Shown here: one piece after another, positions 1 through 38,514 of the stretch
Position numbering within the stretch: the first letter of the stretch is position 1
Layout: every line of letters begins with the position of its first letter
From: Botryllus schlosseri
Lineage: Eukaryota
Assembly: GCA_051294905.1 (NCBI GenBank)
Contig: CM119372.1
Coordinates: forward strand, 36,210,001 to 36,274,000
Direction: 5' to 3'
DNA length: 64,000 bases
The notes under the pieces: generated by a model
Seen by the model: only the letters and a program-made list of their open reading frames with translations
Told to the model about the DNA's origin: nothing
Database searches by the model: none
Position numbers and translations under genes: made by a program

Positions 1-59
1 AAATATTCGGGTTCATTTCAATATGAATATACTATTCAATTGTATATTGAAGTTCTGTA

Positions 60-9962: not shown

Positions 9963-10397
9963 CTCTAAGCTCAACATTAGGATCAAGTCGCTGACATTGA
10001 CACTCAATTTTAAGAAGGGAAAAATTGCACACTCAATTCAAAGTTTCACCTTGAAGTAGTGGCACTGCAAAACCGTTATATGCAGGTTACATGAAGAATA
10101 GAATAGTTACATGACAATATAAGTAAAATACCCGTGATCTCAGTGCGGTATTACTTCTGATCCGAAAGTTCCTTGTTTTCAGAGAAACTCGTCTCAAGAT
10201 ATCATGATAATGAGCCAAATTCCAACATCAACGGTGAAATTAAATATCTTGTACTCCTCGAAACGCAAAGATAAAGCCAGAATACGACTAAAGAAAAGGG
10301 AGCATAGCAATATGCCAACTTACATCGACGTTAGAGCCACTGTTTCAGCGCTTTATCACCAATCGTAGGCTATTTTGCTCATTCCGTGGATTGCGAG

Positions 10398-13179: not shown

Positions 13180-13742
13180 ATTGCGAGTAACGGAATTGTC
13201 ATGATAGAACCCATTTAATCCGTAATATGATATTATGATTGATAATGAAGTATGCAAACGAAAAAAAGGGTCATGGATTTCGAGGAAATATTATGGAATC
13301 AATTGACTGGTGCAGCCCGCAAGCGACCTGAAGGTTTTAATTCGGCCCGCGACGCAAGTTGTGTTTGAAACCCCTGCTATAGAGTAATAGACAAATTCTT
13401 CAAGATGTATATTTCTTTTCTTGAACAGCAATTTCACCATAAGTTACTCAGCCGATTAATTTGATAATATATTATTTCAGTAATGACCGTGTGGGCCACT
13501 CGGACCCATCTCGCAAGCCACGAGTTTTCCACCGTTCAATTAGTCTATGCAAACTCTGCTTTCTTTCTCAAACAATAACTTATGTTATGTATGAAATGGT
13601 CACAGTTCATTTTCTGGAGTTTACGTTCTATCTTTTATTTTCCATTGAATTGCTATTGTGCGTGATTTATATGTAACAATCCAGCATTCTTCACTAAATA
13701 TCGTTTAATTTCAATTTAGATTTCACTCTATTCACAGTTGAA

Positions 13743-14663
13743 ATGACGGATATATTTACGAAGAGATGCCTCTCTGAATGTACAAACACCAGTATCATTT
13801 GCGAATATTGTTTGCTTGTAATCGCCGTCTACTTCTGTTCCGTTCACTGGATTTATATTCATCACATGCATAACTGCCATGAATGCTGTGCGATTTCGCG
13901 AAAGCTTACGCGAAGTATTCTTCTGGCGATCAGCAGCACATTAATTGTTGCCTCGATGATTATCGATATTATTGTGATGATATATCATCGGGAAAAGTGC
14001 GACCACTGCAAAGGGCCTGATGTCGCGTCGAATAGGAGCAACTGCAGCGATGTAGTATGTAGTATGGAGGGAATATCGACTGTTTGGTCATCTATGATCG
14101 TTGCCTTTGTAGCCGTACCAGTTTTGTTACACGCCGTCACGTGGATGAGGCAGAGGGTAATCTATCGGAGTTCGTTCTTGTCTCATCTGTCAAACAATAT
14201 TTCAAGATTCATAAGCAAATACTTTTTAATTTACATTGCAGTGGTGGTCATCTTGGCGATAACGCTCATCTGCTTATCCTACTGCGAAATTGTGTCGCTC
14301 ATGCTGCTTACTTGGGCTATCCAGTTCCCGCTTCTGATTCTATCTGTCTATCCATTAATCAAAGCAATCTATTTCTGCCGGATATTGAACCAAAGAAGTC
14401 ATTGCAAATACGCTCGACTTATAAGAAGAATCACCATTGTGACTACGATATGCTTGGCGTCAGATACAGCTCTAGCGATATATTTAGAGCTAGGTGACTG
14501 CCCGCCGTTATGGTCCTTCCATTTAAACCTGCTCCTCAATCTGATTTGTGTGAATTTCATCTCGAAGGATTGGAAATGGAGGCTTGCGCCTTGGGTACGT
14601 TCCTTACAAACCTTTGTTCGGACAAGGGAGAGAATATCGTACGTGGAACGTGAACTTCGATGA
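13743..14663 (+). CDS. Single-exon multi-pass membrane protein, 7TM/GPCR-like, 306 aa
   Basis: Longest ORF in the window, with about 7 hydrophobic segments, a basic WMRQRVIY after TM3, SVYPL, SD in TM6, and NLLLN...WKWRLAPW near the C-terminus. Confidence 0.75.
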   Translation: MTDIFTKRCLSECTNTSIICEYCLLVIAVYFCSVHWIYIHHMHNCHECCAISRKLTRSILLAISSTLIVASMIIDIIVMIYHREKCDHCKGPDVASNRSNCSDVVCSMEGISTVWSSMIVAFVAVPVLLHAVTWMRQRVIYRSSFLSHLSNNISRFISKYFLIYIAVVVILAITLICLSYCEIVSLMLLTWAIQFPLLILSVYPLIKAIYFCRILNQRSHCKYARLIRRITIVTTICLASDTALAIYLELGDCPPLWSFHLNLLLNLICVNFISKDWKWRLAPWVRSLQTFVRTRERISYVERELR

Positions 14664-15425: not shown

Positions 15426-18400
15426 TTCCAGGTGTTTTTCGACTACAAAGGCCATTTACACCGGGTCGATTTTTATTTATTTTGATTCCGTACCTGCCAA
15501 CCATACAGCCCATTTCTAGACTTATTTTCAATAAACCACTTGTACAGATCAGAAGGCGAAGGGCAATTGAGACAAACTTCTAACACTTGAGTATAAAGTC
15601 TGAAGGCCAATGCTGAAACTACAACAATATAAATTCTAAAGTTACCTTTATTGTTCTTAGTCCATATTTTTACATATTTCCATACTTTGTCTAATTTTTG
15701 GTTCTCAAGACAGGTCGCAATGGTCATATGGACGATACGAACAGTCCAACTTGTTACCAGGCCGTGGTGAGGATTAGGCAAAATCGATGACCTATTTATA
15801 GTCACCAGCTGCTCAAATTCCGCGGTTAGGCTAATTAAAATTTAACCCTGGTTGTGGAGATCAAAACAATATCTCGGGATGGCTATACTACACAGTGCAA
15901 ATGCGCAGTCATACACCACAAAATTATAGATTCCGCGCTAAAAACAGGGTAAGAACCCCTGAACTACGTGAATTTCGTTAATCTCCCTTCAAAGTTTGAT
16001 ATCGATGAAAGAACAGTCGTAAAATGAAAACGCTGGTTGAATGGTAGACTTGGGAGGCTTCATCCTTTCGTTATTCTTATGCTACCCATCCCAATTAATG
16101 CAGCAATCGTTCAACGCCGTGGCGTATTGTTATTCTCTGAATCGATGGGCTGTCATGCAGTTCCACCTGCTCATAACAATAGGCAGTATAGTCAGTGTTG
16201 CTTCTGTAGTAGAAGTAGTGATTTCCAACACGTGTCCAAACTAAATTGTTTAAAGACACTTTATTTAAAACATGCTGAAAATTGTTTTAAAAAATTGACT
16301 TTTTGACAAAAACAAATTTTTTTCGAATGTAGTATAATTATGACATAATTGTGCAAATACTTTCGCAAAATACGTAGTATGAGCCTATGGACGATTTGCA
16401 CCCGATACAGTCGTCCTACGCGATATGGAATTGTCGGAACCCTCATAATCGTCGTGTGTGGCATAACGATGTAGCCCTGGTTAAAGATATTTTGGTCCGT
16501 TTAATACAGGGTTCGGAAGCCGTTTTCGTCAAGGGAGCTATTTTACCCTACGTGTTCGATAGTCAATCCACTGTGACGTCACAAGATTCGAGGCATCATG
16601 GCTAAAAATAAAAATAAAACATGTTTCAAACAGGGGTCTTGCTTTAAACATGATTGTTTTAAATTTATTTTTGTTTTGAATACAACCCTAGTCCGGCTAT
16701 AAATGAGGTGAATGAAGAAAATGAAAGCTCTCAAAAGTAATGAAGTAGTTGGGAAAAGTATGTTGGTGAAGAGTACATATACTTTCAGGCAGAATTGATA
16801 GGAGGTGAAAACTCTCGACAATGCGGGATAACATTTCGCAACCATCGCAAAAAGATTAATGACGGTACAAATGGGTACATTCGTCTATAAACATGTGTTT
16901 ACCAAAGGGAGGATATCGCCCTCGCCTGGAATATTTTGAAGGACAGGATGCTAAAGTAAGGAATGGGCCCATTGTGGGGTGAAAATTTTAGAACGTTCAG
17001 TCCATTTTATTGACAGAAAAGCGTTTTAATACTTGACACATTTAGCACGGGAAAAGTGAAAAGGAAGTTAGGGAACCAGTGCACAAGACTATTACAACCA
17101 GAGGTTACTATGATGCCAATTTCACGCGCTTGTTATGACGATCTAACTGATAACTGCAAACTTATCCCAAAACTAGTATTTACTTGACAAAATATTAAAT
17201 GCATAATTTTTGCCTAAATAACACAGTAAAATTAGCATAATAACATGGCCACTTGGATAGTTAGTGCAAGTATAGACAAAACGTACTTGAGTACTTCGAT
17301 AAAGTAAAGGTACTTCAATCCTGACTACCTCTGTAGTGTCGTCAGGTATTTGCCTGTTAGCGAGGTAACATGACGCGAAGTAGCCTATAACAACAGCCAA
17401 ACCATTGTTAGCCATGCGATATGACGTATAATTCTTTCAAATCACTCCTTCGTGGTAAGTACCCGCTCCAGTCGAGGTTACAGTCACGTATGGATGAACA
17501 AAATAAATCAGGGTCGCGTTCTTCCATCTACTCCAGTGGTTCTCAACCTTTTCACCTCGCGGACCGGTAGAATTCCCAAAAATATTTGGCGAACCGGTGG
17601 ACTTCCAAAAATTGAAATCAACCCGCAATGCAAAGTAAACAGACGTTTTTTGCAAGTATATGGTGCTAGAGAGTGTCATTTTGAGAGTTTCGATCATAAT
17701 TAATTATGTTCATGATGGCATCCATGTGATTTTACGGTTGTGAGTGTGCTGAGTCGAAGTAGAATTGCATTGCCCAGATAAACGTGTTACTGCCGAGAGT
17801 CGTTTACAGGCTTTCGCGTCGTAGACCGTGGATTTAACCGACCGCGGCAACTCGAATAATATTCATATCTTCGACAATATCGAGGGAAGAAGTGTTTCCG
17901 GAGTAAAACCAACACCTAGTCGTGCTACCTTGTTGAATGCCCATTTCCCACTACTACCAGACGTGGACAGTAGTATAATTAGTCGCTGGTGAGAGGTAAA
18001 ATACCGGAAACCAGAATGTTGTATTTCGGAAGTCAGAAACGCAGCATTTTGAGCTAGCTAGCAGTCGAAAATCGGCCTATGGAGCTTCGGAAAAGCGTCA
18101 TTGTGGCGCTTCATGGACGCGCATTGTGTATTTCATAGAACTAATGACTCTGTGTATGGTGTGCGGATTTTGAAAACAGGTGTTCGAGTGTGTATTGACC
18201 TATATTCCGCGCGACAAATGACTCTGGCATCCTGGGTCCGCTCAATCACTATAGTGGTTCTATCGTGAATTGCTTCCCATGAAACAGCCGCTACAGTATA
18301 CTGAATCTATCGTAATATGGTATCGGAGTATTACAGTAGTCTGTCAAACCCTTTCATGAATTCAGCAGCGACACGAAAATATTCATCAAACATTGTGTAT

Positions 18401-18951
18401 TGTGAAACAGTTATATTGCAAGATATCGTGATGCTGTATTACAGAATGGCATGCCGTGATTATCAGCTAATATTTCACAAAACCTGATCGTTTACACTAA
18501 TAAAGGCTAAAGTTGAAACAGCAGTCGCAAGGGTAAAAAAATTTCGCAAAATGATTTGAAATTCAACTCATTCAGTGATCTGTTTTTCCCGTGTCAAAAT
18601 TGAGTATCGGAAAATGCTATCGCCATTGCATCCGAAATATCAACATCTTACACAACCTAACTAGACCAATTACTGACAGATCGCCATGTGTTATATTTAG
18701 CTATGCCTTGTCCATCTAACTGAGCCGCTATATGTATGATAAAATAAAAGTTGCGCGAGCATATAGCGTGTGGGCGATTTTGCATGTCGCAGGGTTGAAT
18801 AATGCTTGAATTCTTTCGTACTATCTAACGTGCCCTATGTAAAACATTCTGGGTCTACAGATTTATCAAAAACACTTCCATCATCGCAAAACCGATTGAT
18901 AAAATGATTATTACATACAATCTAATCAGGTGGACTTACCTTATATGTAGA

Positions 18952-19430
18952 ATGCAGAACGGTAAAGTAATCGGAGATATCGACTACACTGTATTTTGTC
19001 TCGATGTTCGTGAGTAGTATTGATGCATTTTTTCATTTCTCTTCTCCAAAATAATTGTCATTACGAAATCTAGAACACTAAACAGCGTTGCTTGGGTAAT
19101 ATGATTTCGAGTTGGTATTAAATTCCTAACATTTTACTACAGGGTATATAGGCTCAGGCAGCAACAGTTCTGATTTAGCAGACGCTGGTGACAAGGGTCT
19201 CGCCCACTCAACACAACACACGTATTTAAAAGTATCGCATACTCACACCGAAAGCACTGACATTACCGTTTACCCCAAATAGTGTTCGCCGCGTTATTAT
19301 TTCCACGATATCACTCATTAAATATTACATTTATGTTTTTGTGTGACACTAGGTAGAATTGGATCACACCAAACTCGACGCAGCATTCCTTTGCGTCATG
19401 ATATGGATACTGTCCCGCCGCGCTTCATTG
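18952..19430 (+). other. Tentative upstream exons of the LRR gene (18952-19009, 19143-19231, 19353-19430), mirrored in the right arm
   Basis: GT-AG bounded and phase-compatible: MQNGKVIGDIDYTVFCLDV / RYIGSGSNSSDLADAGDKGLAHSTQHTYLK / VELDHTKLDAAFL. I could not join them cleanly to the exon at 20597. Confidence 0.4.
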
Positions 19431-20596
19431 GTGTGGATCTGTATCCTACAAGTTATATTGTTTTCCCTGAAAGCGGCGTTTACTCACTTGGTTGATAGCT
19501 GCGTGATTTGGCACACCACTGATTGGTTAATACTTAATTCCGTGCATCCTCTCTACGCCGCGTGCTAAATGTTTACAAGCACTTTAATCATCACGAAAGC
19601 AAATTGAAATATGTTTGCTACGTCGAGCTTATTCGGGTAGACTTGAGTTATAGGTAGAATACAGAACATCAAATAAATCCCAATATTGACTACTCCAAAA
19701 TCGGGTTAATGAGAATGGTATTGCTGTTCATAAGTTATTGCTAAAATCTTTCTATTTCTATCCACTTAAATATTTGTCATCAGAAAATTCGATCCACTAA
19801 AAGAACTTGATTTGGTAACATTAATTCGATTATTTTAGCAACTTGTCGTCAAATTGTAATCGAAATTCGACATCCTTAGCATGTATCGTTTGGTAAGCGT
19901 GCCATACTGGAAATATATCCATACATTCCTTCCAAAATACAGCATCGATTTCGATTTCAGAAGCATATACTTGCCCGAAACTATCCCAATCCAATTTTCT
20001 CCCTACAATGGCTTTCTATAACGCGATGAATGACCTATATTCTGGATAATCAGTTTATTGACATTTTTTTTTTCAATTTTTCGAACCACCTGTCTTACAA
20101 TGACACAAGTATAATAGCGATAACATGGTAATAATAGAATCGCGGCAGGGATCCCCTCCACAATGTAAATGGTTATTACTCATTACTATCTTCATATGAA
20201 ACACCTAATTACAAGATTCCAAAGGTACAGAAAAGTTTAGGTCGAAATAAATAATTGACTTCATTCTATATTCTACTGCTACAAAACCGAGATTGGTTGG
20301 TTACACACCGTAAACCTAACGCTATACATTGTAGTCGAGCAATCTCGAGCTTGAATATGTCAAGACCTCTGATTATTTCTATCTGGCGTATCGGAATATT
20401 CAAATAATCCAACAATGGAATTATTGCTTAAAAAAAATCACTGCTTCAGTTTATCTGGCACGTATCATTATTTTATCCGACTTATCGAAATATTGAAAAT
20501 AGTCCAACACAAAAATCACATTGGAATTTTATTGGAATGAATATTCATTTTATTTTCTGATCATTAATTAATGACGATATACCACATATACTAAAG

Positions 20597-23446
20597 GTGA
20601 TAAGAGGATGTACCATCAATCAATACTTATGGATCATGATGAAGTTGAAATTCCTTATGGGATCTATCATAAAACTACGACCGAATTGGATGTAAAGAAT
20701 ATTGTGAATGGTCTCATGGAGAACTCTCGCATGTACGAGTTAGAATTCCGCCAAAGCCATCTTAATGAGAACCTTGTAAAGATGATATTGGACCAAATTC
20801 GCGAATTTGCATTTGAGGTAAACACATTCACACATTCCGCTCACAGTCACTGAGCAAGTGAACATTATAATCCACGTTCAATTTAAGCATGATATCCGTA
20901 TAATATACAGAGGTGGCTTAAATAAAAAACTTTCATCATGACCGCATTGTTTCATATTGATATTGTTATTACGGGGGGAATTGAAGGTATCGTACCGAAC
21001 AACGCTTAATTGCGCACCAGTGTAGCCATTTATTGCAATAGTCGTACTAGAGACTAGTGAGAGCTGATGAGGGGGTTGATTATTCATCACCTCAATTACT
21101 GCTTTACGGAGGAAAGTTTTGCATTTGTAAAGGTCCGAATAAAAAAACTCAGCGTCACAGCCCACGAGGGCATTGACAACCTCTTACCAGCCATCTGCGA
21201 GTTGATGAACGAGTGTGGTTCGACAGAACTCAATCTGGGGGAGAGTAGCGGATCTAGCGATTTTCTGCTCGTTTTGAGTCAACTTATCAGGCAACATCAG
21301 GTATTGGCGATGGAAAAATCCGGAGACTAAACTAGTATAAATCCTTTCCAAATGAGATCTTCCCATATAGGTGAAATTGGAAAAACTCGATCTCAGCTAC
21401 GGCGAAAACATCGACTTTACGCAACTCGAGACTATTATTTGAAGCGATCTAACCTGTTTGTCACTTGTGAACTCGCACTTGCAGTCAAAGGATTTTGTCG
21501 CCATGCAGGTCAAAAACAGTAAGGTATGGGTCTTGGGCGATTGTTGTTGAGTAGTGGTCAAGAGTCACATTCTTTATTGGTGGTTGCACAGAGTTCATTT
21601 GAGACGAATCATAGAAATTCTATTTTATCTCAGAACATTTCACCAATCTATTATGACGTGACTGGCTAATCAACATTTCTCTGTTATAAGTTTGTAGTGT
21701 TTATCTTCATCTCTGATTAATTGTGGTCGTAAATTGTCAGTTTCTCATATTCGTTTAGCTACAATATCTTGACATCAGTTATAATCATTTGGATGAAGAG
21801 TGTATGAATGCACTGCCCCCCTTATTTTCTAAAGACAAAGCGGTTACTCTTGTGATGAAAGGATGCGACCTTACACCCGATGAAATCGATGCTTTTGAAT
21901 GTTTTGGTGAAATCGAGGTAGCCACTCGTTTCCACAATTTTGCGTGTCTTTTTCAGAATAATTTGCTGTATTTTGTAGGTTGAAAAACTCGATCTAAGTT
22001 ACAATACGGATTTGGAACCGGTAGGATTGCAAGAAATCGGACGCTTCGTGAAAAGGCATAACACGAAGGAAGTTCGACTTTCAGCTTGCGAATTGGATGA
22101 ACAGTCATTAGTGTCGTTGAATAATGGTCTCGGAAATCATAAGGTGATCCATTTTAGCTATAGATCTGTCTTGTTTTCTTACAAGTGAAATAATAAAGCA
22201 TAATGTAATACTAATGTGGGTTCCAATCATATAGTCAGGCATGGCATTTCATTTTGCGAGCGAATTTATCATCAATAAGGCATTCCTGATCACGTCTGGC
22301 GATAAAAAAGTGTCATTGCTTCTAAGCGGAAGGTTTTCTATAGCTTATTCATATTAATGGTAGTTTCGATAGTTTCTTCAATATCCTATCGACGCTCATT
22401 ATTATTTTTTCTGTATTACACTAGTTTTGCGATGAGGCGCCGAAATTGATCAAATTACTCTGTCGCCGATAAATATTGTTATTACAGCAACTGTGTGGTT
22501 TGTAGCGCCGTAAAATATCTGAACATCACACTATGTTATAGCTGCATTCGCTGGATTTGAGTAGAAATCCTGAAATTTCATCCAGCTACAAAACAGTAAC
22601 TGAAATCCTGCACAAAACCCGCGTTGAAGAATTCAATCTGAGTAATTGCAAGATGCTTTCCATACAAATCAGGAATCTTAGCGAAGAGATGGGGGAGCTA
22701 TGCCCTACAGTGAGTTCTTTCTGCTCTCTCATGCATCTCAATAAAGCAATGTAGTTTAGATTTCGTTACTGAAATTGATCTAAACCGCCTAATATTCAAT
22801 TATTCAATGAACAGCTAAAGGTATTCGACCTCAGTGACAGCGATAGAACAAGAATCGACGAGGAATATGTGACTATCATTCAGAGCTTCGTGAAATATCA
22901 TCCTGAATGTCGCCAACTCAAACTGATCTTACCGCGCTTGAATGGCGTAGACAGGGAAACTTTAAGGAAGCAATTGTATTCGTCCGGTAAGACGACATTT
23001 CCGCATAAATATGCATCTATACATTGAAATTTGGTGCCCTTATTCCTTCACTTTATATTACTTATCGTGTTCGCTACGGCTTGATAAAATTTCATGTCTC
23101 TGTGTTAATTAAAGCATGAATTAAAGCACCACAATCACAACCTAATTGAAACCACGAGTCTGCAACCAATATTCTGATTTTGTTGAACAGTTATAGTTAA
23201 TAAATATTTTTATTGGTATCATTATGATAACAATATCTTCGAGACCTGTGTATGGCATACCCAGGAACCCGTATTATAAAATTGTACCGATTTGACAGAA
23301 TGCATAGAGTTGAGATGTTTCGATTCTAATTACATGTGGTATTATATGGGTTTCGTAAAACGAGACATACAACGCGATTTCCTAAAAGGTTCATCTCTTT
23401 TTGCGTTGCTTTAGACCGGACGCGTATAATATACACATTTGGATAA
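20597..23446 (+). pseudogene. Spliced ribonuclease-inhibitor/NLR-type LRR gene, left-arm copy with premature stop
   Basis: Exons 20597-20817, 21133-21300, 21371-21523, 21759-21917, 21979-22143, 22542-22709, 22815-22986 and 23415-23446, all GT-AG. Motifs LEKLDLSY, LQYLDISYNHL, VEKLDLSYN, LHSLDLSRN and LKVFDLSD. In-frame TGA at 21440-21442. Confidence 0.85.
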
Positions 23447-24684
23447 CGATTTTCTTTCATCACATGAGCAATATGTTCAGTGTTCACCCACGCGATAAAG
23501 CAAATCAGTAGTCCTCATAAGACTTGCAAATGTTTATCACACTCATAATAGTATACTAACGGCAACTATAGTCGGCGATATACTGCAGGTTTCGATGTGA
23601 TCGGCTGACCAATAATAAATCGCACATAGCACTCACATCAGTGCAATAATTGGCTTCAGGTGTTTGGTAGGTATTTCATTACGACGGAAGCATGTGAACC
23701 GAAGTTTTGGTCGTGATTGATAGTGACCGAGCGGTAAAATATGGTTGTGTTTAATCTGTGTGTGTGTGTGTGTACGACTGTGAAGCTACAATCTACGATA
23801 TCATCCCCGTACTTCACTTGTTAAGATCCGTGCTTAGCATTTTCGAGACGCATTACGACTGAATTTGCAATCTCGCTAGTTTTACGAACCGGTATATGCT
23901 TGTGTTGCGACAATGATCAGTGGATGATCATGATCAAGCTTCGAAAATGGATGAACACGTGTTTTCGAGCTTATTAACAACTCATGAGTGTGCACTTGTC
24001 AGTTAGTTTGCTCACACGTAAATAATAGAGATTTTCGCTGCGCAGGGAAGATGTTGTTTAAATCTTTATAAACCAATTCACATTGCATACAATCCTTGCC
24101 GCTTCGAACTCGGAAAGTCAATTTGGTAAACTCAATCACCAGATCCCGATAATCACCTGAAGCGATAAACCAAAACCAACAAATAATGTATAGCTTCAAC
24201 TAGGCCCACATGTCGATACACTGTCAATACGAAAAGTTACAATGTGTATGATGCTACAAATTCCGTGTGTTCCATTCTGGTTCAGCTCATTCATACAAAG
24301 TATTTGAAGAAATTGTTGCTTGTGCAGTTATGGTGTGAAAACTGGATGTATATAAAGCTTGATAGATGCTATCTCGTTCTGGAAGTATATTGATTCTATC
24401 ATCATGTATGCTTGAGGTCACCGACATTAATACGAAAGAATTGTTACTGTACAAATGTTTTACAGTCGATAGTTTACTGTCTGTAATAATTACACAACAA
24501 GGTTGCAGCTCAAACGATTACCGCATTGCCATGAGAGTTAATTATGATTCCACCGATGTTGTGCACCATAATATATTGAAAATTAATTTTCACGAGCTCC
24601 AAACTTGCATCGCGAGATCAATAAAATCGATTTTGTAAATTCAATCTGATGAATAGATGGCGGAAGACTTGTAGATCTAGAACG

Positions 24685-25263
24685 CAATCAGTCATATTTG
24701 TCCATCATGATACATAGTTATTCGAGCAAATTTAACAGTGATGCTATCGATACAGTGAACAGCACAAGGGGTGATATATTCACAGTCAAATATGGGAACC
24801 ATGAATAATAATGCACCCTGATTTTCGTTGAATATTCACAACACCGACAAATTGATAAATCTCTCTGTCGTAGACATCGACGATACAATTCTCATCCCAA
24901 TGCACAGTTCGAATGGTAGGCTCATCGGGCGTGAAATCCAAATCAAATAACACATAGGTGTGCTTTCTTGACTTCAAGATCCGTACAGAGGCATCGCGCC
25001 TGTGTTTTAGAACTACAGTGTGAGGCCAGAGAAAACGGTGTACGGAATAACGTATCGTCATGATCTCCCGTTGATATGATTAACTGAAACTTACGTCGCT
25101 CGATAGATATGCTGTGGTGACCTGTTTCGAAATGTAGCGGGGTGAACTAGACCAAAACTTTTGATGACACGTTTTATAATTATGCATTGTGTGAAAATAC
25201 GAGACGGCGCTCTCTAGCGGGGTGGTTAACACGATTTCAGTCTTCATCCTACAGAAACACTAT
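24685..25263. other. Unique 579-bp spacer (loop) of the palindrome, containing a 91-aa minus-strand ORF at 24786-25061
   Basis: Symmetry ends after ...TCTAGAACG at 24684 and resumes with CGTTCTAGA at 25264. Confidence 0.85.
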
Positions 25264-26501
25264 CGTTCTAGATCTACAAGTCTTCCGCCATCTATTCATC
25301 AGATTGAATTTACAAAATCGATTTTATTGATCTCGCGATGCAAGTTTGGAGCTCGTGAAAATTAATTTTCAATATATTATGGTGCACAACATCGGTGGAA
25401 TCATAATTAACTCTCATGGCAATGCGGTAATCGTTTGAGCTGCAACCTTGTTGTGTAATTATTACAGACAGTAAACTATCGACTGTAAAACATTTGTACA
25501 GTAACAATTCTTTCGTATTAATGTCGGTGACCTCAAGCATACATGATGATAGAATCAATATACTTCCAGAACGAGATAGCATCTATCAAGCTTTATATAC
25601 ATCCAGTTTTCACACCATAACTGCACAAGCAACAATTTCTTCAAATACTTTGTATGAATGAGCTGAACCAGAATGGAACACACGGAATTTGTAGCATCAT
25701 ACACATTGTAACTTTTCGTATTGACAGTGTATCGACATGTGGGCCTAGTTGAAGCTATACATTATTTGTTGGTTTTGGTTTATCGCTTCAGGTGATTATC
25801 GGGATCTGGTGATTGAGTTTACCAAATTGACTTTCCGAGTTCGAAGCGGCAAGGATTGTATGCAATGTGAATTGGTTTATAAAGATTTAAACAACATCTT
25901 CCCTGCGCAGCGAAAATCTCTATTATTTACGTGTGAGCAAACTAACTGACAAGTGCACACTCATGAGTTGTTAATAAGCTCGAAAACACGTGTTCATCCA
26001 TTTTCGAAGCTTGATCATGATCATCCACTGATCATTGTCGCAACACAAGCATATACCGGTTCGTAAAACTAGCGAGATTGCAAATTCAGTCGTAATGCGT
26101 CTCGAAAATGCTAAGCACGGATCTTAACAAGTGAAGCACGGGGATGATATCGTAGATTGTAGCTTCACAGTCGTACACACACACACACACAGATTAAACA
26201 CAACCATATTTTACCGCTCGGTCACTATCAATCACGACCAAAACTTCGGTTCACATGCTTCCGTCGTAATGAAATACCTACCAAACACCTGAAGCCAATT
26301 ATTGCACTGATGTGAGTGCTATGTGCGATTTATTATTGGTCAGCCGATCACATCGAAACCTGCAGTATATCGCCGACTATAGTTGCCGTTAGTATACTAT
26401 TATGAGTGTGATAAACATTTGCAAGTCTTATGAGGACTACTGATTTGCTTTATCGCGTGGGTGAACACTGAACATATTGCTCATGTGATGAAAGAAAATC
26501 G

Positions 26502-29351
26502 TTATCCAAATGTGTATATTATACGCGTCCGGTCTAAAGCAACGCAAAAAGAGATGAACCTTTTAGGAAATCGCGTTGTATGTCTCGTTTTACGAAACCC
26601 ATATAATACCACATGTAATTAGAATCGAAACATCTCAACTCTATGCATTCTGTCAAATCGGTACAATTTTATAATACGGGTTCCTGGGTATGCCATACAC
26701 AGGTCTCGAAGATATTGTTATCATAATGATACCAATAAAAATATTTATTAACTATAACTGTTCAACAAAATCAGAATATTGGTTGCAGACTCGTGGTTTC
26801 AATTAGGTTGTGATTGTGGTGCTTTAATTCATGCTTTAATTAACACAGAGACATGAAATTTTATCAAGCCGTAGCGAACACGATAAGTAATATAAAGTGA
26901 AGGAATAAGGGCACCAAATTTCAATGTATAGATGCATATTTATGCGGAAATGTCGTCTTACCGGACGAATACAATTGCTTCCTTAAAGTTTCCCTGTCTA
27001 CGCCATTCAAGCGCGGTAAGATCAGTTTGAGTTGGCGACATTCAGGATGATATTTCACGAAGCTCTGAATGATAGTCACATATTCCTCGTCGATTCTTGT
27101 TCTATCGCTGTCACTGAGGTCGAATACCTTTAGCTGTTCATTGAATAATTGAATATTAGGCGGTTTAGATCAATTTCAGTAACGAAATCTAAACTACATT
27201 GCTTTATTGAGATGCATGAGAGAGCAGAAAGAACTCACTGTAGGGCATAGCTCCCCCATCTCTTCGCTAAGATTCCTGATTTGTATGGAAAGCATCTTGC
27301 AATTACTCAGATTGAATTCTTCAACGCGGGTTTTGTGCAGGATTTCAGTTACTGTTTTGTAGCTGGATGAAATTTCAGGATTTCTACTCAAATCCAGCGA
27401 ATGCAGCTATAACATAGTGTGATGTTCAGATATTTTACGGCGCTACAAACCACACAGTTGCTGTAATAACAATATTTATCGGCGACAGAGTAATTTGATC
27501 AATTTCGGCGCCTCATCGCAAAACTAGTGTAATACAGAAAAAATAATAATGAGCGTCGATAGGATATTGAAGAAACTATCGAAACTACCATTAATATGAA
27601 TAAGCTATAGAAAACCTTCCGCTTAGAAGCAATGACACTTTTTTATCGCCAGACGTGATCAGGAATGCCTTATTGATGATAAATTCGCTCGCAAAATGAA
27701 ATGCCATGCCTGACTATATGATTGGAACCCACATTAGTATTACATTATGCTTTATTATTTCACTTGTAAGAAAACAAGACAGATCTATAGCTAAAATGGA
27801 TCACCTTATGATTTCCGAGACCATTATTCAACGACACTAATGACTGTTCATCCAATTCGCAAGCTGAAAGTCGAACTTCCTTCGTGTTATGCCTTTTCAC
27901 GAAGCGTCCGATTTCTTGCAATCCTACCGGTTCCAAATCCGTATTGTAACTTAGATCGAGTTTTTCAACCTACAAAATACAGCAAATTATTCTGAAAAAG
28001 ACACGCAAAATTGTGGAAACGAGTGGCTACCTCGATTTCACCAAAACATTCAAAAGCATCGATTTCATCGGGTGTAAGGTCGCATCCTTTCATCACAAGA
28101 GTAACCGCTTTGTCTTTAGAAAATAAGGGGGGCAGTGCATTCATACACTCTTCATCCAAATGATTATAACTGATGTCAAGATATTGTAGCTAAACGAATA
28201 TGAGAAACTGACAATTTACGACCACAATTAATCAGAGATGAAGATGAACACTACAAACTTATAACAGAGAAATGTTGATTAGCCAGTCACGTCATAATAG
28301 ATTGGTGAAATGTTCTGAGATAAAATAGAATTTCTGTGATTCGTCTCAAATGAACTCTGTGCAACCACCAATAAAGAATGTGACTCTTGACCACTACTCA
28401 ACAACAATCGCCCAAGACCCATACCTTACTGTTTTTGACCTGCATGGCGACAAAATCCTTTGACTGCAAGTGCGAGTTCACAAGTGACAAACAGGTTAGA
28501 TCGCTTGAAATAATAGTCTCGAGTTGCGTAAAGTCGATGTTTTCGCCGTAGCTGAGATCGAGTTTTTCCAATTTCACCTATATGGGAAGATCTCATTTGG
28601 AAAGGATTTATACTAGTTTAGTCTCCGGATTTTTCCATCGCCAATACCTGATGTTGCCTGATAAGTTGACTCAAAACGAGCAGAAAATCGCTAGATCCGC
28701 TACACTCCCCCAGATTGAGTTCTGTCGAACCACACTCGTTCATCAACTCGCAGATGGCTGGTAAGAGGTTGTCAATGCCCTCGTGGGCTGTGACGCTGAG
28801 TTTTTTTATTCGGACCTTTACAAATGCAAAACTTTCCTCCGTAAAGCAGTAATTGAGGTGATGAATAATCAACCCCCTCATCAGCTCTCACTAGTCTCTA
28901 GTACGACTATTGCAATAAATGGCTACACTGGTGCGCAATTAAGCGTTGTTCGGTACGATACCTTCAATTCCCCCCGTAATAACAATATCAATATGAAACA
29001 ATGCGGTCATGATGAAAGTTTTTTATTTAAGCCACCTCTGTATATTATACGGATATCATGCTTAAATTGAACGTGGATTATAATGTTCACTTGCTCAGTG
29101 ACTGTGAGCGGAATGTGTGAATGTGTTTACCTCAAATGCAAAATCGCGAATTTGGTCCAATATCATCTTTACAAGGTTCTCATTAAGATGGCTTTGGCGG
29201 AATTCTAACTCGTACATGCGAGAGTTCTCCATGAGACCATTCACAATATTCTTTACATCCAATTCGGTCGTAGTTTTATGATAGATCCCATAAGGAATTT
29301 CAACTTCATCATGATCCATAAGTATTGATTGATGGTACATCCTCTTATCAC
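26502..29351 (-). CDS. Spliced ribonuclease-inhibitor/NLR-type LRR gene, right-arm copy (about 408 aa from the ATG at 29340; true 5' end uncertain)
   Basis: Mirror of the left-arm exons, with TCA (Ser) at 28506-28508 in place of TGA. The LRR exons are 153-172 nt and mostly phase 0. Confidence 0.8.
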
Positions 29352-32162
29352 CTTTAGTATATGTGGTATATCGTCATTAATTAATGATCAGAAAATAAAA
29401 TGAATATTCATTCCAATAAAATTCCAATGTGATTTTTGTGTTGGACTATTTTCAATATTTCGATAAGTCGGATAAAATAATGATACGTGCCAGATAAACT
29501 GAAGCAGTGATTTTTTTTAAGCAATAATTCCATTGTTGGATTATTTGAATATTCCGATACGCCAGATAGAAATAATCAGAGGTCTTGACATATTCAAGCT
29601 CGAGATTGCTCGACTACAATGTATAGCGTTAGGTTTACGGTGTGTAACCAACCAATCTCGGTTTTGTAGCAGTAGAATATAGAATGAAGTCAATTATTTA
29701 TTTCGACCTAAACTTTTCTGTACCTTTGGAATCTTGTAATTAGGTGTTTCATATGAAGATAGTAATGAGTAATAACCATTTACATTGTGGAGGGGATCCC
29801 TGCCGCGATTCTATTATTACCATGTTATCGCTATTATACTTGTGTCATTGTAAGACAGGTGGTTCGAAAAATTGAAAAAAAAAATGTCAATAAACTGATT
29901 ATCCAGAATATAGGTCATTCATCGCGTTATAGAAAGCCATTGTAGGTAGAAAATTGGATTGGGATCGTTTCGGGCAAGTATATGCTTCTGAAATCGAAAT
30001 CGATGCTGTATTTTGGAAGGAATGTATGGATATATTTCCAGTATGGCACGCTTACCAAACGATACATGCTAAGGATGTCGAATTTCGATTACAATTTGAC
30101 GACAAGTTGCTAAAATAATCGAATTAATGTTACCAAATCAAGTTCTTTTAGTGGATCGAATTTTCTGATGACAAATATTTAAGTGGATAGAAATAGAAAG
30201 ATTTTAGCAATAACTTATGAACAGCAATACCATTCTCATTAACCCGATTTTGGAGTAGTCAATATTGGGATTTATTTGATGTTCTGTATTCTACCTATAA
30301 CTCAAGTCTACCCGAATAAGCTCGACGTAGCAAACATATTTCAATTTGCTTTCGTGATGATTAAAGTGCTTGTAAACATTTAGCACGCGGCGTAGAGAGG
30401 ATGCACGGAATTAAGTATTAACCAATCAGTGGTGTGCCAAATCACGCAGCTATCAACCAAGTGAGTAAACGCCGCTTTCAGGGAAAACAATATAACTTGT
30501 AGGATACAGATCCACACCAATGAAGCGCGGCGGGACAGTATCCATATCATGACGCAAAGGAATGCTGCGTCGAGTTTGGTGTGATCCAATTCTACCTAGT
30601 GTCACACAAAAACATAAATGTAATATTTAATGAGTGATATCGTGGAAATAATAACGCGGCGAACACTATTTGGGGTAAACGTTAATGTCAGTGCTTTCGG
30701 TGTGAGTATGCGATACTTTTAAATACGTGTGTTGTGTTGAGTGGGCGAGACCCTTGTCACCAGCGTCTGCTAAATCAGAACTGTTGCTGCCTGAGCCTAT
30801 ATACCCTGTAGTAAAATGTTAGGAATTTAATACCAACTCGAAATCATATTACCCAAGCAACGCTGTTTAGTGTTCTAGATTTCGTAATGACAATTATTTT
30901 GGAGAAGAGAAATGAAAAAATGCATCAATACTACTCACGAACATCGAGACAAAATACAGTGTAGTCGATATCTCCGATTACCGTTCTGCATTCTACATAT
31001 AAGGTAAGTCCACCTGATTAGATTGTATGTAATAATCATTTTATCAATCGGTTTTGCGATGATGGAAGTGTTTTTGATAAATCTGTAGACCCAGAATGTT
31101 TTACATAGGGCACGTTAGATAGTACGAAAGAATTCAAGCATTATTCAACCCTGCGACATGCAAAATCGCCCACACGCTATATGCTCGCGCAACTTTTATT
31201 TTATCATACATATAGCGGCTCAGTTAGATGGACAAGGCATAGCTAAATATAACACATGGCGATCTGTCAGTAATTGGTCTAGTTAGGTTGTGTAAGATGT
31301 TGATATTTCGGATGCAATGGCGATAGCATTTTCCGATACTCAATTTTGACACGGGAAAAACAGATCACTGAATGAGTTGAATTTCAAATCATTTTGCGAA
31401 ATTTTTTTACCCTTGCGACTGCTGTTTCAACTTTAGCCTTTATTAGTGTAAACGATCAGGTTTTGTGAAATATTAGCTGATAATCACGGCATGCCATTCT
31501 GTAATACAGCATCACGATATCTTGCAATATAACTGTTTCACAATACACAATGTTTGATGAATATTTTCGTGTCGCTGCTGAATTCATGAAAGGGTTTGAC
31601 AGACTACTGTAATACTCCGATACCATATTACGATAGATTCAGTATACTGTAGCGGCTGTTTCATGGGAAGCAATTCACGATAGAACCACTATAGTGATTG
31701 AGCGGACCCAGGATGCCAGAGTCAGTTGTCGCGCGGAATATAGGTCAATACACACTCGAACACCTGTTTTCAAAATCCGCACACCATACACAGAGTCATT
31801 AGTTCTATGAAATACACAATGCGCGTCCATGAAGCGCCACAATGACGCTTCTCCGAAGCTCCATAGGCCGATTTTCGACTGCTAGCTAGCTCAAAATGCT
31901 GCGTTTCTGACTTCCGAAATACAACATTCTGGTTTCCGGTATTTTACCTCTCACCAGCGACTAATTATACTACTGTGGACTGTTGTAGCTACTACGGCTA
32001 TAATGCGCCGCACCAAAACACCTGGCAACAGCTATACTTGGCCCTCCACAAAATCAGAACAGAAAAGGCGTAGGCTACCCCAACGTTGGTCTTGGGCCTC
32101 TCACAGAGAGAGGGATATCTTTACCGTTACTTGTGATCACATCCATTCTACTCAGTGCAAGC

Positions 32163-32893
32163 CAGTGGTTCTCAAATTGGGGGCGTGCCCCCGTGAAAGC
32201 TTGAGAAAGGGTGCGCGAAGCCGCCTGAAAGAAAAATATGTTACTCAAACTGAGAACAACCTTTCAACAAAGGAAATATTTTTAATTACATAACAATTCA
32301 AATTTCATGATTGCGTCGTACAGTTTCTACACGGATGTCAAATTTCGTCTGATACCGGACCTTTCACTGATTAGAAGATGTATCACTCCAAGAAGCGCAT
32401 TTTATTATGGCAATCAGTGGAATTATTCTCTTGCCAAACATGGCGAACATTGCGCAGGGAAAAAATGTTTGCCAGTGTAAAAGTGCCAAGTTTAAATGGC
32501 GTACGGCCCGGGCCATTGGTTTTCAATTTAGCTTACGCCCAGGTAGACCTACGTTTGAGTTAAGCTCAAGTGGGATAATAAAATGGATCAGGCACCAAAA
32601 TCGCTAAATGCTGCGTGCTATCACTGCAAATGATTATTTTTGATACGATGTTGAAGTGAAAATTTTTCGCGCTGGGCTTGATTTAACTCCAGCAAATGAA
32701 TATTGCTCCCTATATAATCCGAAATTCTTATTTGACAAGTCTCTCATCAGTTCTAACCTTCCATGACATCAAACTATGCATTATCATTGCAAACATTTGG
32801 TCGTTTTTTTCAATATTTTGCTATGACGATAAGGAGGGGCGCAACATTTTTCACGATAATAACGGGGCGTGTCAAAAGGTTTTGGAACCTCTG
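32163..32893. mobile_element. Degenerate hAT MITE
   Basis: Ends CAGTGGTTCTCAAA...TTTGGAACCTCTG with TSD GTGCAAGC/TTGTAAGC (6/8). Confidence 0.7.
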
Positions 32894-34604
32894 TTGTAAG
32901 CAAAGAGTTCGTGAATAGCTTAATCACGCGAGGCGCGGGAATTTCCTCTAATTCATGACCAAATTGGTCAATGATAATGGTAATTGCGGATATATTGCTA
33001 AAAAATCATCCCATCAGAATTGTTATATTTCCGATAGAGCTGAGTGAGGTGTCGTCTTGGAAAATTCAGGACACGTAATCAACAATTAAATATATTAGGG
33101 CGGGCCTGTTGGAATAATTACTTCGTCACATGTCATAAATTCGTGTCCTATACTGTCTGTTATATAGTGAATAGATATTGAAATCGCCCAAGTGTACTAA
33201 ACTAAAAGCGCACACGATTCCAAACTGGTATTTCTTTACTGGAAAATAGCATGCCTCGGTGGGATGGCATTTGTTTTGTCGGGTATGGATTGTCAGGACA
33301 GCGAAATTCGACACCAGCCATTTAGGTGCCTATGGACAACTTGACATAATATATCGAAGTTTTTGGTGAACGAAGGTCAATCCTTTTCGGCCAAAATTTT
33401 GTCGCCGCCAAATTGTTGGCACATTGTTCGGAGTCCCATGTTAGCCTAAGCTTCATCATGTGTTGGTGCGTCGTGGTGCTGCAATGGTTGATGCCGAAAT
33501 GTCTACTCCTATATAACCCATGCGTATTTCTTAGGGGAATGGCTCCCTCAAGGCATTTAGTGGCACTAAATCGGGCAAAGCGTCGACAAAATTGAAATGT
33601 TGGATGAAGTTTCAACCAGATTACTCTATACTTCATGTTCATTTCACGAAATAACTTTGGGCCCCCTTCAAGCTCGACCCTCTTCAATTGGAGGGTTTGG
33701 GTGCGGTGGTTACAGTTCAGCACAAAATGAATGAATCGAAAACGAATTATCGTGCAAGCTGCGCGATTAAGCGAGTCAGCTCAGACTTTTCAATAGCATG
33801 TCGTCAAATGACACGGCTTGAACTTCAAGTCAAATCGAACATGTTTCCAGGCCTAATGTTACCTCACGAAGTTCTGAATCAGTTTAAAATTTGATTTCAT
33901 ATTTATTTTTATCAATGGACAAGTCTTTAACATATTGCATCTTGAAATTGAGGTATAAAATTGTAATATACCTGGCGGACCGGCAGGAAAGTCGTCGCGG
34001 ACCGGCGGTTGAGAACCACTGATCTACACAGCTAATTAGATACTCAACAAATTTCCACTTGATTTTTAAAACGAGAACGTTAGTTTGGGTTCTATATGTA
34101 TCTGTAATGCTGACTCCTAAACTAGATTTTTTTCTAGCTTATTTTCAATATTTTTTGAGAAAAGCTTTCCTATAGTAGAAAGAGGCTTGTTACCGTGGGC
34201 ATTTCAGATTTGTTTAGGGGGGTTCAATAATTTAGAGCAGTGGTGGGCAATTATTTTCCTCTGCGGGCCAAATGAGAAGTAGAAAATGCGTGGGCCGGCC
34301 GAGTGGGAAATTTAAGCTGTATTCTCCATCGTATTTTAATTATATTTCTAAATTACATTGTTAGTAAATGCTGCTCAGTGAATATGTTGATATTAGGTAA
34401 TGAGAAAGTGACGGTTAGCCTAATTGAAAAATATTTATTTGCCGTCATGATTGGAGACAACGTTGAACATGATGCATTTTGACTCCCTTTAAACCCCTGT
34501 CCACGTTCTTCTATTAAGACTCCAAAACAGTGTTTTTTTTTAGGCACACCTTCCTTCCTTTATGATAATGAAACATTTCGCGCTCCCCATGATCAGATCA
34601 TGAT

Positions 34605-37377
34605 CAGACATGGAGTGATTACTTCATGAATGTAATCGATTGCGATTACGATTGCGATTACGATTACAGCAAAATCAGGAAGTAGTCGATTACGATTACA
34701 TTGGAAAAGTAATCACCATTACTCACGATTACATTTATTTTGCTTCTTAGAACTAAACTCGGAACATATATTGGAAGACAATATAAGGATTGCGATGAAA
34801 AGGCCTAATGAGAAAACAACTTTCTTTTGATTGATGCGTCATTTGTTTGTTACGTCATATTGCACCCATTGCCCTACTTCACAGGGGACGGCACATCGCA
34901 CCCATACGATTTGCATTCTTGCCAGGTCCGTAACTGCCGCTCGCCATTGGGGTGGGGAGCGACCTCAAAGGGGACTCAAAAGTATTTCGTAAACCAACAT
35001 AAATTATAGAGTATTTTCGAGATATTTAATTAATTTTAAAATATTCTTCGAGCTTCGCGATTTAAATGTCTCTAGATAGCTTGTAGTGAATTGAAATGCA
35101 TACCTCTCTCCCTCAAGAAAAAGGCATGCATAATTTATAGCAATGAGGATTTCGTTGCCGGTCATTACCGCGCCACGACACACCAAAAGTCATGCACTTT
35201 CGGCCCACATGCGACATGCTATATTAAAGAAAGAAATTGGTCGAAACTTTGGGTATGTGTCCATTGTCAATAGCCACGCTGGGTGGGTGTGACTAATAGT
35301 CCTGTCCTTCCAATCTGAGCCCACAATACAAATGCCACCTGGGGCATCCACAGAGGAATAAAGACTTGAGAATTTGTGTGTGCGTCTCGCGAAAGTGTTT
35401 TTTTAGTCCGCTACGTTTGGGCGACAACAATCTTTTGAACAGACCGGAGGTAACGAATCATCAACATACAATAAAGTCATATCATAACAACGTACCAGAT
35501 GTTATAATTATGAATTACGTGTCCTCAGCTCTAAATGTAAACCTGGCCATCGGGGGCTGAGAGAGGATCAAAAATGAATAATAATTTAATGCAATTACCA
35601 ATATTATTGACGAAATCCAGTCTTCAACTTGAAAATTGACCGTCCTATGGGGCCCCCAAGACCAACGTTTAACGTGGGGGACGAATAGCTGTTTTAGTCC
35701 TGATTTTAGCTACGACCCACGCTAACATGGGGTATAAGTGGACTGGAATGGCGGCAGGTCCAAATGTTGAGTAAAGAATTACGAAATAACGATTGACCTC
35801 CATTCAAGGATAGTAATACAAGAATAAGAACATAAAATTCTGCCATTCACATAATACAGATACTGTAAGCTGCCATTACGAGAAACAACAAAGAACGGCT
35901 TGGTTATGATATATATCAGCAGCTGCTGATTTTTAATGTTTCGTTGTCGAAATCGTAATGTATTATTTGACGAGTACAAATTTTCAAATCTTTGTCCAGT
36001 ACGTCTGTACGTACTACATAGGCCTGCTGCTTGCCAAGCAGCATAGGTCAAACTGCATTTAACTAAGCATAACCAAACATACAATAAATAAGTTACTATT
36101 TAAAACTAGGCAGAGTTGTGATCATTATCCTGTGGCGAGGTGGTGGCGACTCAAGTGTATTGATAACATGATATACAGCACGGCGGGTGTTCTTACAATC
36201 ACACTACCATCTACATCAAGGATGTCAAACATCCGGCCCGTCAGACGATTTCATCCGAAGTCATTCTGAGTAGATTGAAAATGCTTCTAATATCCAGAAC
36301 ATTTCTAACGACTGTTGAATTTTTTTTGTAGGGATTACTTCCATCAAACAATCCCGCAAGATAGCAAATGCCGAGCATGGTCAGGCCACATTAAAGTCAT
36401 GCGACAGTGGTATTGTATTTTGACTCTATACATCATTAGAAACAAAATCGGCGATATTAGCATCCAATTCCAACACTGGATTCCGAGTTCTATGCCAAAA
36501 ATTACCGAGAAATAGTTTATTCACAGAAACGAAATCGCCAGTGCGAAACTGTTATATTCAAGTTACACGAAAATATACTTCAAATATCCGTAATCGCAGA
36601 TTCGCAGTACTGTTTCCCTTCTGACTCAAAAGTTCCCGGCTTCCAGAGCAAACCGTATCAAGATTTCATATTAGCCTAATGAGCTCAATTTCAACGTCCG
36701 AGTTGACGGTTATATATCCCTTGCAGCCCGGCTAAAACAAAGGGAGCATTGAAATATGCCAACTTATATTGCCGTTAGAGCCACTGTTTCAGTGGTAATA
36801 ACTGCTGTATTTAACCGGTACATCATCGTAATTGCCAATTTTGTTGTTTGGTACTAACGGTGTTGCTAAAATAAAACCCCTATTATCCGTAATGAAAGTG
36901 TTCAAGTGAAATACAAGTCAATGGATTGCGAGCAAACACTATGGAATCATTTGAATAGTGCGGCCCGCGAGCGACTTGGTTGGAGGTTTGTATCCGGCCC
37001 GCCATGCAAGTTGAGTTTGACAATCCTGACCTACATGGATTATATGTGCGGAGACTTCTTACGCAATGACGAGCAAAGCTAATACTTGTGACGTATTAAT
37101 GAGTAGTGGCGTTTGTAAATCAGACGTTTGTATCATCACTCACTTGGTATAATATATCTTCCTTGTTCGCGAATGTTCAGTTTATGTCATAGTCCTTGTA
37201 CAAATGAAAAGTGATCGTACTTTCGCAAAGAAATCGATTAGATATGGGAAGTAGTCGATTACGATTACGATTACTTCGGATTTTTTTCGAATGTAATCGA
37301 TTGCGATTGCGATTACTTGAAAATGCTGTAATCGTCGTAATCGATTATGATTACTAGTCGCGATTACCCCATGTCTG
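34605..37377. mobile_element. hAT family B, second copy (inverted)
   Basis: Ends CAGACATGG...CCATGTCTG with exact TSD ATCATGAT. A single ATCATGAT (empty site) is present in the host paralogue near 1417-1424. Confidence 0.92.
36217..37028. mobile_element. hAT MITE family A nested in family B
   Basis: Ends CAAGGATGTCAAAC...GTTTGACAATCCTG with TSD ATCTACAT/ACCTACAT. Confidence 0.85.
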
Positions 37378-38514
37378 ATCATGATATTACAAAATATTAA
37401 AAAGTGTAACCAGAAAGCTAGCAATCCCAACGGATAGTTTGATGGCATGGAAAGTTCTGCTGTTGCTGAGAGAATTCTGAAATATAAAAGTCGGAGAATA
37501 CATATAGCCAAAACGATACGCCGGGGTAAATCGCGCAGGGCGCGAAAATTTTTTTCAATGAACTTCGACTTCGCGCCACCCTTCTGATGCTTTAACGCCC
37601 CTCAGTTCGAGAACCACGGCACTGAAATGTATATGCAATAGTACAAAGCTTGTTTTCTTGGTCGCTAACTTCCGAGCAGTGTGCACTGTGCAGCTTAAGT
37701 AGCCTTCATGCTGAGTAAAGCTTGCAGTTTTTATGAACTTCGCCCTCTCTAGACCGAGTGTTTCGTGTTTTGGCTTTACTTAATATCCTTAATCTCGGCG
37801 ACATGCTCGGCAAAAACTAAAAGGACGGGTTGACCCCTGACTCCAATATACAAATATTTAGTGCTCTAGTCTAAACCTAAACCTTTGAATTTCAGTTTTC
37901 GGCTTTCATTTTTTGGCATGCCCGTTAATCCTTTATGGGGGATAGATATGATGAGCCGCACAGTAATCGCAAGCACTGATTGATTTGCTTTACGAAGTAG
38001 GGATTTGGAAACATTTTACAAATTAGGGATTTAGAAAGGTATCACGTAACAATTTGAAACACATGCCGTATAATGCACAATGTGGGATTGCCACAGTGAC
38101 AATGGCATCGATGAAGGTTTGAACTAAACTATATTTAAATATTTATTTCTTGTGACTTCAATTGCTAGTCAGTATTTGCTACATTGCCTATATTTTGAAT
38201 CTGGATTACGCATGTGAGGTAAGTAGGCAGCGTGATCGTGGCATATTAATAAACAGGCTTCAAAGTATACAAATTTCCTGTTCATTTGATACAAACTAAG
38301 GTTTTAGTCATTCAAAAAGCTGTTATGTGTTTTGAATTACAAGCAACCTTTCGCGGGCCGCAGAGAATAGATTCACGGGCCGCACTTTGCTCAGGTCTGA
38401 GGCATATTTGTATACGCTAGAGTGCGCATGCTTGACTACATTTCTTGGTCAAATGGTCACGGAAATGGGAATATTCCGGATATAGCTTTCATATGGCACT
38501 GTGTGTGTCAATAG

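Follow-up and report, generated by a model that had tools for sequence, protein, structure and literature searches.

How does a nearly perfect palindrome of 14 kb come to lie in the middle of an older transposable element? The question is raised by a stretch of 64,000 nucleotides of the Botryllus schlosseri genome (assembly GCA_051294905.1, contig CM119372.1, positions 36,210,001 to 36,274,000 of the forward strand), hereafter called the window, whose own numbering is used throughout. A preliminary description of the window had proposed that the palindrome arrived as one insertion that split a miniature inverted-repeat transposable element (MITE) of the hAT type. The explanation that we consider likely is that a non-autonomous Maverick-type (Polinton) element, already palindromic, was inserted in trans into an older, inactive hAT/Buster-type element.

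The palindrome and its host element

A BLAST comparison of the window with itself reveals a long inverted repeat that pairs positions 17967-24684 with 31976-25264 at 99.76% identity. At the base level, the palindrome spans 17969-31974 (14,006 bp), starts with AGTAGTATAA and ends with TTATACTACT, its terminal motif being AGTAGT..ACTACT. The left arm (17969-24684, forward strand, 6,716 bp) begins with AGTAGT, the right arm (25264-31974, reverse strand, 6,711 bp) ends with ACTACT, and a unique spacer of 579 bp (24685-25263) lies between them; the inverted arms thus make up 96% of the palindrome. In a global alignment of 6,716 bp, the arms differ by 11 substitutions (0.16%) and a single indel of 5 bp. 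The hexamer GTGGAC stands in direct orientation on both sides (17963-17968 and 31975-31980) and forms a perfect 6-bp target-site duplication (TSD). Because GTGGAC is almost its own reverse complement, BLAST extends the arms two letters past the element ends. The chance of a 6-bp TSD at a fixed place is about 3e-4, and that of the six end letters of the palindrome is similar (about 3e-4).

No gene for a protein-primed polymerase (pPolB), integrase, ATPase, protease or capsid was found in the arm or spacer frames that were scanned with Pfam and PHROGs (15 frames for the latter), some short frames lying outside the scan. The longest stop-to-stop frame in arm or spacer has 101 codons, and a match to Integrase_p58_C (25 residues, E = 0.037, 14.6 of the 27 bits) is below the cut-off. 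Rfam and ARAGORN gave no match in the window, the output of Tandem Repeats Finder contains no tandem sub-repeat of the arms, and the 21-nt end motif of the palindrome had no match in viral contigs and none in metagenome contigs. Each arm also contains an old direct duplication (about 70% identity; 18870-19110 and 19577-19829 in the left arm), and one contig of the public run X5, introduced below, skips 18901-19414.

The sequences outside the two GTGGAC copies belong to a single element. Its left part (17534-17968, forward strand) opens with a terminal inverted repeat (TIR) of 15 bp (17534-17548, CAGTGGTTCTCAACC) and ends in the left TSD of the palindrome; its right part (31981-34021, forward strand) closes with the reverse complement of the same TIR (34007-34021). 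The 8-bp TSD of this host, of the nnnTAnnn type, reads ATCTACTC on the left (17526-17533) and ATCTACAC on the right (34022-34029), a match of 7/8 with a chance of about 5e-4. Removal of 17969-31980 leaves a joined host of 2,476 bp with one copy of GTGGAC, so that the preliminary description was right both about the hexamer and about flanks that join into one hAT element with its own terminal repeats and a near-perfect 8-bp TSD. The joined host itself contains a second hAT MITE (32163-32893, forward strand, 731 bp; TSD GTGCAAGC / TTGTAAGC, 6/8). An alternative pairing of the end at 34021 with the start at 32163 was rejected since the TSDs disagree.

Without the palindrome and the second MITE, the host measures 1,737 bp. 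At 1.74 kb it is longer than typical MITEs, and the name non-autonomous hAT suits it better. It has no recognisable remnant of a transposase, as Pfam gave no match for 33325-33780, 31886-32290 or 52666-53082 (the latter in the paralogue described below). Such a lack of a Buster-clade transposase is to be expected of a non-autonomous copy, and the Buster placement, which follows from the TSD and the ends, is provisional at the level of the clade. Two other hAT-type elements of the window (7022-7402 and 8334-9962) have ends similar to those of the host and perfect 8-bp TSDs of the nnnTAnnn type; the interior of the one at 8334-9962 is related to that of the host (about 70%).

This anatomy bears on the possibility that a local leucine-rich repeat (LRR) gene region, which happened to lie in a hAT element, underwent an inverted duplication in situ. 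The arms do hold a spliced gene of host type (see below), and only two letters distinguish the TSD, GTGGAC, from the GTCCAC with which a longer arm would continue. Nevertheless, two adjacent changes are unlikely when the arms diverge by 0.16%, the Maverick end motif stands exactly at both boundaries, and the flanks come together as a single hAT element in which 7 kb of resident DNA would have no place. Together with the probable empty site discussed below, these observations largely refute a duplication in situ, which we regard as very improbable.

A paralogue of the host without the palindrome

A diverged paralogue of the host is present in the same window (52455-53687, forward strand). Its left end, including the first ~100 bp, is missing, and its right end (59313-59382, forward strand) is separated from the rest by a TTAA-flanked insert (53686-59316). 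The last 21 bp of this right end (59362-59382) are the same as the right end of the host, which ties the host interior to the right TIR of the host. Three matches follow each other in the same order in both copies: 17647-17941 with 52479-52773 (83%), 31999-32055 with 52812-52867 (81% over 57 bp, E = 1e-8) and 33099-33949 with 52870-53687 (74%). The three anchor sequences singled out in the preliminary description are all present, and after removal of the palindrome their spacing is 97 versus 90 bp and 113 versus 105 bp. The joined flanks and the paralogue reach a global alignment score of 53, while the best of 1,000 shuffles reaches 3.7. The proposal that the paralogue runs collinearly through this region without a large insert is thereby upheld. 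It does not extend to the breakpoint: over the central 50 bp at the junction, the alignment is no better than chance (908 of the 1,000 shuffles score as high), and no GTGGAC is found in the paralogue at the junction position. The paralogue accordingly documents the absence of a large insert rather than an exact empty site.

The Kimura two-parameter (K2P) distance between the two copies, 0.17-0.22, dates the split of two hAT copies and not the insertion of the host. Around 290 bp of the host are missing from the paralogue. Their interpretation as a third insertion was discarded, as 32921-33248 matches the other hAT copy at 8334-9962 (about 69%), and a deletion in the paralogue seems more likely than an insertion in the host. 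The insert that splits the paralogue (53686-59316) is 5.6 kb long, with a TTAA target duplication, CCC..GGG ends, which we take to be piggyBac-like, and a 19-bp inverted match that includes the TTAA. Two broken frames within it (57240-57938 and 56279-56671, minus strand) resemble a transposase by eye; neither has a convincing Pfam match.

Probable empty and filled sites in public sequencing runs

Out of 24 public runs listed, 20 contain part of 17400-25300. The best four (share 0.54-0.60) come from one sample, which may be the source, and include the run here called X1; the other 16 have a share below one half, X5 and X6 among them. Contig sets from X1, X5 and X6, as well as the RNA run X24, were mapped on 15900-25300, which comprises the left half of the palindrome only. 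The relative contig depths given below draw on 24 of 5,222 contig rows, and the comparisons of letters between arms and contigs on 40 of 472 rows.

The mapped contigs first concern the possibility that the palindrome is a fold-back artefact of reads or assembly. Such an origin would account for arms that are 99.8% identical, and no listed contig crosses the spacer junctions. Yet contigs from these three separate runs cover each of the 30 bins of 15900-25300, those of the spacer too, the right flank continues the hAT element instead of mirroring the left one (49 of 200 positions identical), and an artefact would be at odds with the unique 579-bp spacer, the 12 differences between the arms and a TSD in direct orientation. 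An artefact is therefore the least probable of all the explanations considered.

Two contigs reach the left boundary of the palindrome. The first, record 17 of X6 (1,394 nt, depth 2.01), fits the window over 17780-17975 only, with five other letters and one gap, and its remaining 1,197 letters do not follow the arm. In a simulated empty site, the local alignment ends at 17975 under four of seven scoring schemes and at 17968 under the other three; it can run to 17975 because the right flank agrees with the start of the arm at 5 of its first 7 letters. At position 17825, the alternative letter accounts for 90.5 of a depth of 92.5 in X6, which leaves about 2 for the letter of the window and points to the palindrome locus, rather than to a general paralogue, as the origin of record 17. 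It is thus probable that this contig represents an empty allele of the palindrome site, and it provides better evidence for such an allele than does the paralogue.

The second contig, record 12 of X5 (271 nt, 17726-17996, depth 50), runs from the hAT element into the first 28 letters of the palindrome and departs from the window at 13 letters over its length (about 5%). Were the site empty, those 28 letters alone would contain 18 mismatches. Although it stays short of the 31 letters by which a junction is counted as bridged, this contig probably represents a filled site, from a second study.

The divergence of record 12 is also what could be expected if the insertion were old, or if hAT element and palindrome had been duplicated as a unit, with ongoing conversion keeping the arms 99.8% alike. 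In that case, the identity of the arms would not date the event. Nevertheless, contigs drop rare variants and the 13 letters may be family letters, and the flank contigs of X5 differ from the window by only 0, 0 and 2 letters. Moreover, the TSD of the palindrome is perfect whereas that of the host matches at 7/8, and a near-identical empty form seems to exist in X6. An old insertion of this kind is improbable, though less so than a duplication in situ.

More generally, arm identity is an unsafe clock because copying or conversion keeps the arms alike. The order of events is instead based on the nesting, on the decay of the TSDs (6/6 versus 7/8) and on the probable empty allele. The earlier claims that the palindrome is younger than its hAT host, and that insertion is to be preferred to a fold-back artefact or an in-situ duplication, are well founded: the former on the nesting, the latter on the collinear flanks, the 6-bp TSD, the Maverick end motif, the non-mirrored right flank and the probable empty-site contig.

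Was the palindrome formed before or after insertion?

The assertion that the palindrome arrived as one insertion is more delicate. An integrase-type insertion is well supported; the palindromic state on arrival is a separate matter, as flanks and TSD would look the same after a later palindromization. It is conceivable that an ordinary Maverick-type element with short TIRs and LRR cargo was inserted and became palindromic in place, by template switching or a repair event in which one end was copied over the other half. This scenario predicts the flanks, the TSD and the end motif equally well, and intron-bearing cargo adjoining one TIR is described in nematode Mavericks (10.1101/2022.07.12.499685). 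In 35 of 36 arm rows, among the 40 of 472 rows compared, both arms share one letter and the mapped contigs show another, which places the two arms nearer to one another than to other copies. These shared letters are consistent with copying or repair on a hairpin, but give no means of telling conversion in place from copying in the course of transposition.

What argues against palindromization of an earlier insertion is only the excess depth of the arm contigs, to which the lack of any Polinton gene remnant in the arm or spacer frames may be added. The median depth of arm contigs relative to flank contigs is 6-11x in X1, 9-12x in X5 and 5x in X6 (where record 17 alone provides the flank baseline), while a lone palindrome would be expected to give 2x. 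Near the element end, at 18105, the summed depth is 1,548, 6,669 and 36 in X1, X5 and X6, respectively, far above the flanks. With arm and spacer contigs several-fold deeper than the flanks in three runs, the data fit a repeated unit and other copies of the arms probably exist, even though the depth of contigs does not measure copy number and is no more than a hint; no second insertion site was seen in these contigs. An empty allele is strongly suggested, and we regard palindromization in place as unlikely, albeit the most plausible of the four rival explanations.

Several points weigh against insertion of a preformed palindrome. LRR paralogues of the host genome add to the arm depth, part of which could also come from the source gene or from segmental duplicates. 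The status of record 17 follows from the position of its break and not from its onward letters, and no listed contig bridges an outer or spacer junction by the 31-letter rule, record 12 of X5 reaching 28. The differences between the arms also thin toward the spacer, which speaks for palindromization in place: 11 of the 12 lie in the outer 3.7 kb and only one in the 3.0 kb on the inner side (P about 0.01, post hoc; Kolmogorov-Smirnov P = 0.07). Some conversion in place may thus have occurred close to the spacer.

Other features of the contigs concern the diversity of the family. The spacer contigs of X1 and X5 are at least as deep as those of the arms, despite there being a single spacer in each element. 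In X5, a contig of depth 147 (side 31) connects 24844 with 25178 on opposite strands and could reflect an inversion in the spacer or a copy that turns at a different point. At 18105-18166, a deep variant of the end region, in which 14 other letters replace about 60, is found in X1 and X6 and suggests a larger sister family with the same terminus. Joints of 20429/20436 with 23760 were rejected as deletion copies because their ends fall on a TG microsatellite.

The LRR cargo

The left arm contains an LRR gene fragment of the ribonuclease inhibitor (RI)/NOD-like receptor (NLR) type (20335-22986, forward strand), made up of eight GT-AG exons and 467 codons with an in-frame stop in the fourth exon (21371-21523). 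The copy of the right arm (26962-29613, reverse strand) has the same eight exons and is open over all 467 codons; at the fourth-exon stop, the listed contigs of X1, X5 and X6 agree with the right arm. The exon phases are compatible, and five exons (153-237 bp) have lengths divisible by three and are in phase 0 at both ends. Since the exons were picked by eye from open frames, their openness is no unbiased test.

A profile of six exons retrieved ribonuclease inhibitor (E = 1.4e-4) and, weakly, NLRPs (E = 0.05-0.3), an Atlas search assigned the cargo to eukaryotic LRR clusters at 0.97, and the Pfam LRR matches were sub-threshold. With NLR immune receptors the cargo shares ribonuclease-inhibitor-type LRRs encoded by phase-0 exons of about two repeats. 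Upstream of the LRR exons, no NACHT domain, N-terminal death-fold domain or start exon was found, and none of the three frames of an exon-like stretch near 19784-19892 is free of stops. What the arms carry is the LRR half of an NLR-like host gene, captured together with its introns.

Word-based protein searches with two LRR exons and the spacer frame gave 6, 8 and 2 candidates, none of which passed; phmmer with one LRR exon found only two unnamed proteins (63% and 56% identity), and a profile of these two proteins yielded no locus among 454 pattern matches in metagenomes. A single LRR exon had no relative in PDB. There is no RNA run among the listed runs that contain part of 17400-25300. From the RNA run X24, of which about 6% was read, 50 reads were placed, all of them partially, none at 99% or more and none wholly on the stretch. 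The loose ends at 22618 and 22660 resemble a transcript of an LRR paralogue, which makes these reads neutral on the expression of the palindrome's LRR copy.

A stop-to-stop frame of 97 codons (24789-25079, minus strand) lies in the spacer, close to signals that resemble splice sites, and could be an exon from a second captured gene. It had no usable Atlas match and no match among 25 viral stretches, and its best PHROGs hit reached only E = 0.098.

At four exon sites where both arms differ from the mapped contigs, three of the differences are synonymous, whereas the three exon differences between the arms all change the protein (tiny numbers). The 467 open codons of the right arm and the three synonymous sites out of four hint at a further, speculative reading, in which the palindrome would belong to a sub-family of hairpin satellites of an endogenous polintovirus, satellites whose NLR-type LRR was kept open by selection during their spread, whose insertion is still polymorphic and in which one arm is copied from the other in each round. 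By analogy with viral immune modulators, the LRR of a gene-less satellite might bind ligands as a decoy of the host's immune receptors, an equally tentative idea. Both are doubtful, in view of the missing start exon and the lack of X24 reads wholly on the stretch.

Other elements of the window

Besides the elements already mentioned, the window contains a 1.2-kb foldback element (45580-46795) with 460-bp arms (91%), TAGGG..CCCTA ends and the perfect 8-bp TSD GTGTATAT. A reverse-transcriptase remnant (51-761, forward strand) matches Pfam RVT_1 below the cut-off (E = 0.003). Three fragmented copies of another repeat family (1055-2391, 10285-13181 and 34238-38399) share 77-89% identity and carry nested inserts. 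An intronless frame of 321 codons (13698-14663, forward strand) has several hydrophobic stretches and, by eye, resembles a seven-transmembrane receptor; it has no Pfam match.

A possible mechanism and its significance

If the palindrome was inserted as a non-autonomous Maverick-type element, the preformed unit would have consisted of two 6.7-kb inverted arms around the 579-bp spacer, and a Maverick integrase acting in trans would have placed it, with its AGTAGT ends and a 6-bp TSD, into the older inactive hAT element. Since the palindrome is devoid of recognisable polymerase and integrase genes, it would depend on a helper Maverick for both enzymes. A single-stranded copy could fold back so that both ends pair, and a protein-primed polymerase could then start from the terminal duplex. 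In the model attributed to Kapitonov and Jurka, as described in 10.64898/2026.07.28.741278, the opposing TIRs anneal, the element leaves and pPolB copies it. An element made up of inverted repeats over 96% of its length would pair along nearly all of it, and hairpin copying or repair would tend to homogenize the two arms.

Nesting is ordinary as such; its value here is that of a control that fixes the state before insertion. Provided that the palindrome was preformed, the locus shows that a near-perfect palindrome of 14 kb can integrate cleanly with Maverick-type ends, to which it adds a probable empty allele and the LRR cargo. The locus is also an example of a Maverick-type element that has picked up and doubled a spliced fragment of an immune-type gene. 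With a probably polymorphic, gene-less and wholly palindromic derivative, the paired-ends model of replication could be tested through a comparison of arms, both inside single copies and among copies.

Comparison with known systems

Long inverted arms are in themselves known: Drosophila Foldback elements have very long ones, as does the palindrome, but ends and TSDs of the Mutator/FB type differ from its Maverick-type ends and 6-bp TSD. No paper describing wholly palindromic, non-autonomous Polintons was found, subscription papers, supplements and Repbase-type libraries being outside the coverage of the search. The original Polinton paper is said to describe non-autonomous Polintons.

Mavericks themselves are among the most similar systems. 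Those of vertebrates have (AGT)2//(ACT)2 ends and a 6-bp TSD according to PMC8097293, and a length range of 13-25 kb is given in 10.1101/2023.08.22.554363. The palindrome shares the TSD, the ends and, with 14,006 bp, the length. It differs in its inverted repeats, as the same two sources report TIRs of 100-1,500 bp and the palindrome has arms of 6,716 and 6,711 bp. As regards the host, Buster-group hATs such as Mar are characterized, according to PMC3517528, by an 8-bp nnnTAnnn TSD, TIRs of 5-27 bp and a length below 4 kb; non-autonomous members likewise match the host in its TSD, 15-bp TIR, size below 4 kb and lack of transposase. The non-autonomous carriage of host gene fragments recalls gene capture of the Pack-MULE type (PMC6431247). 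A parallel to the cargo is found in nematodes, where Mavericks carry intron-bearing host genes, wasp proteases and krma kinases among them (10.1101/2022.07.12.499685), and where spliced, host-derived cargo is likewise enclosed within Maverick ends.

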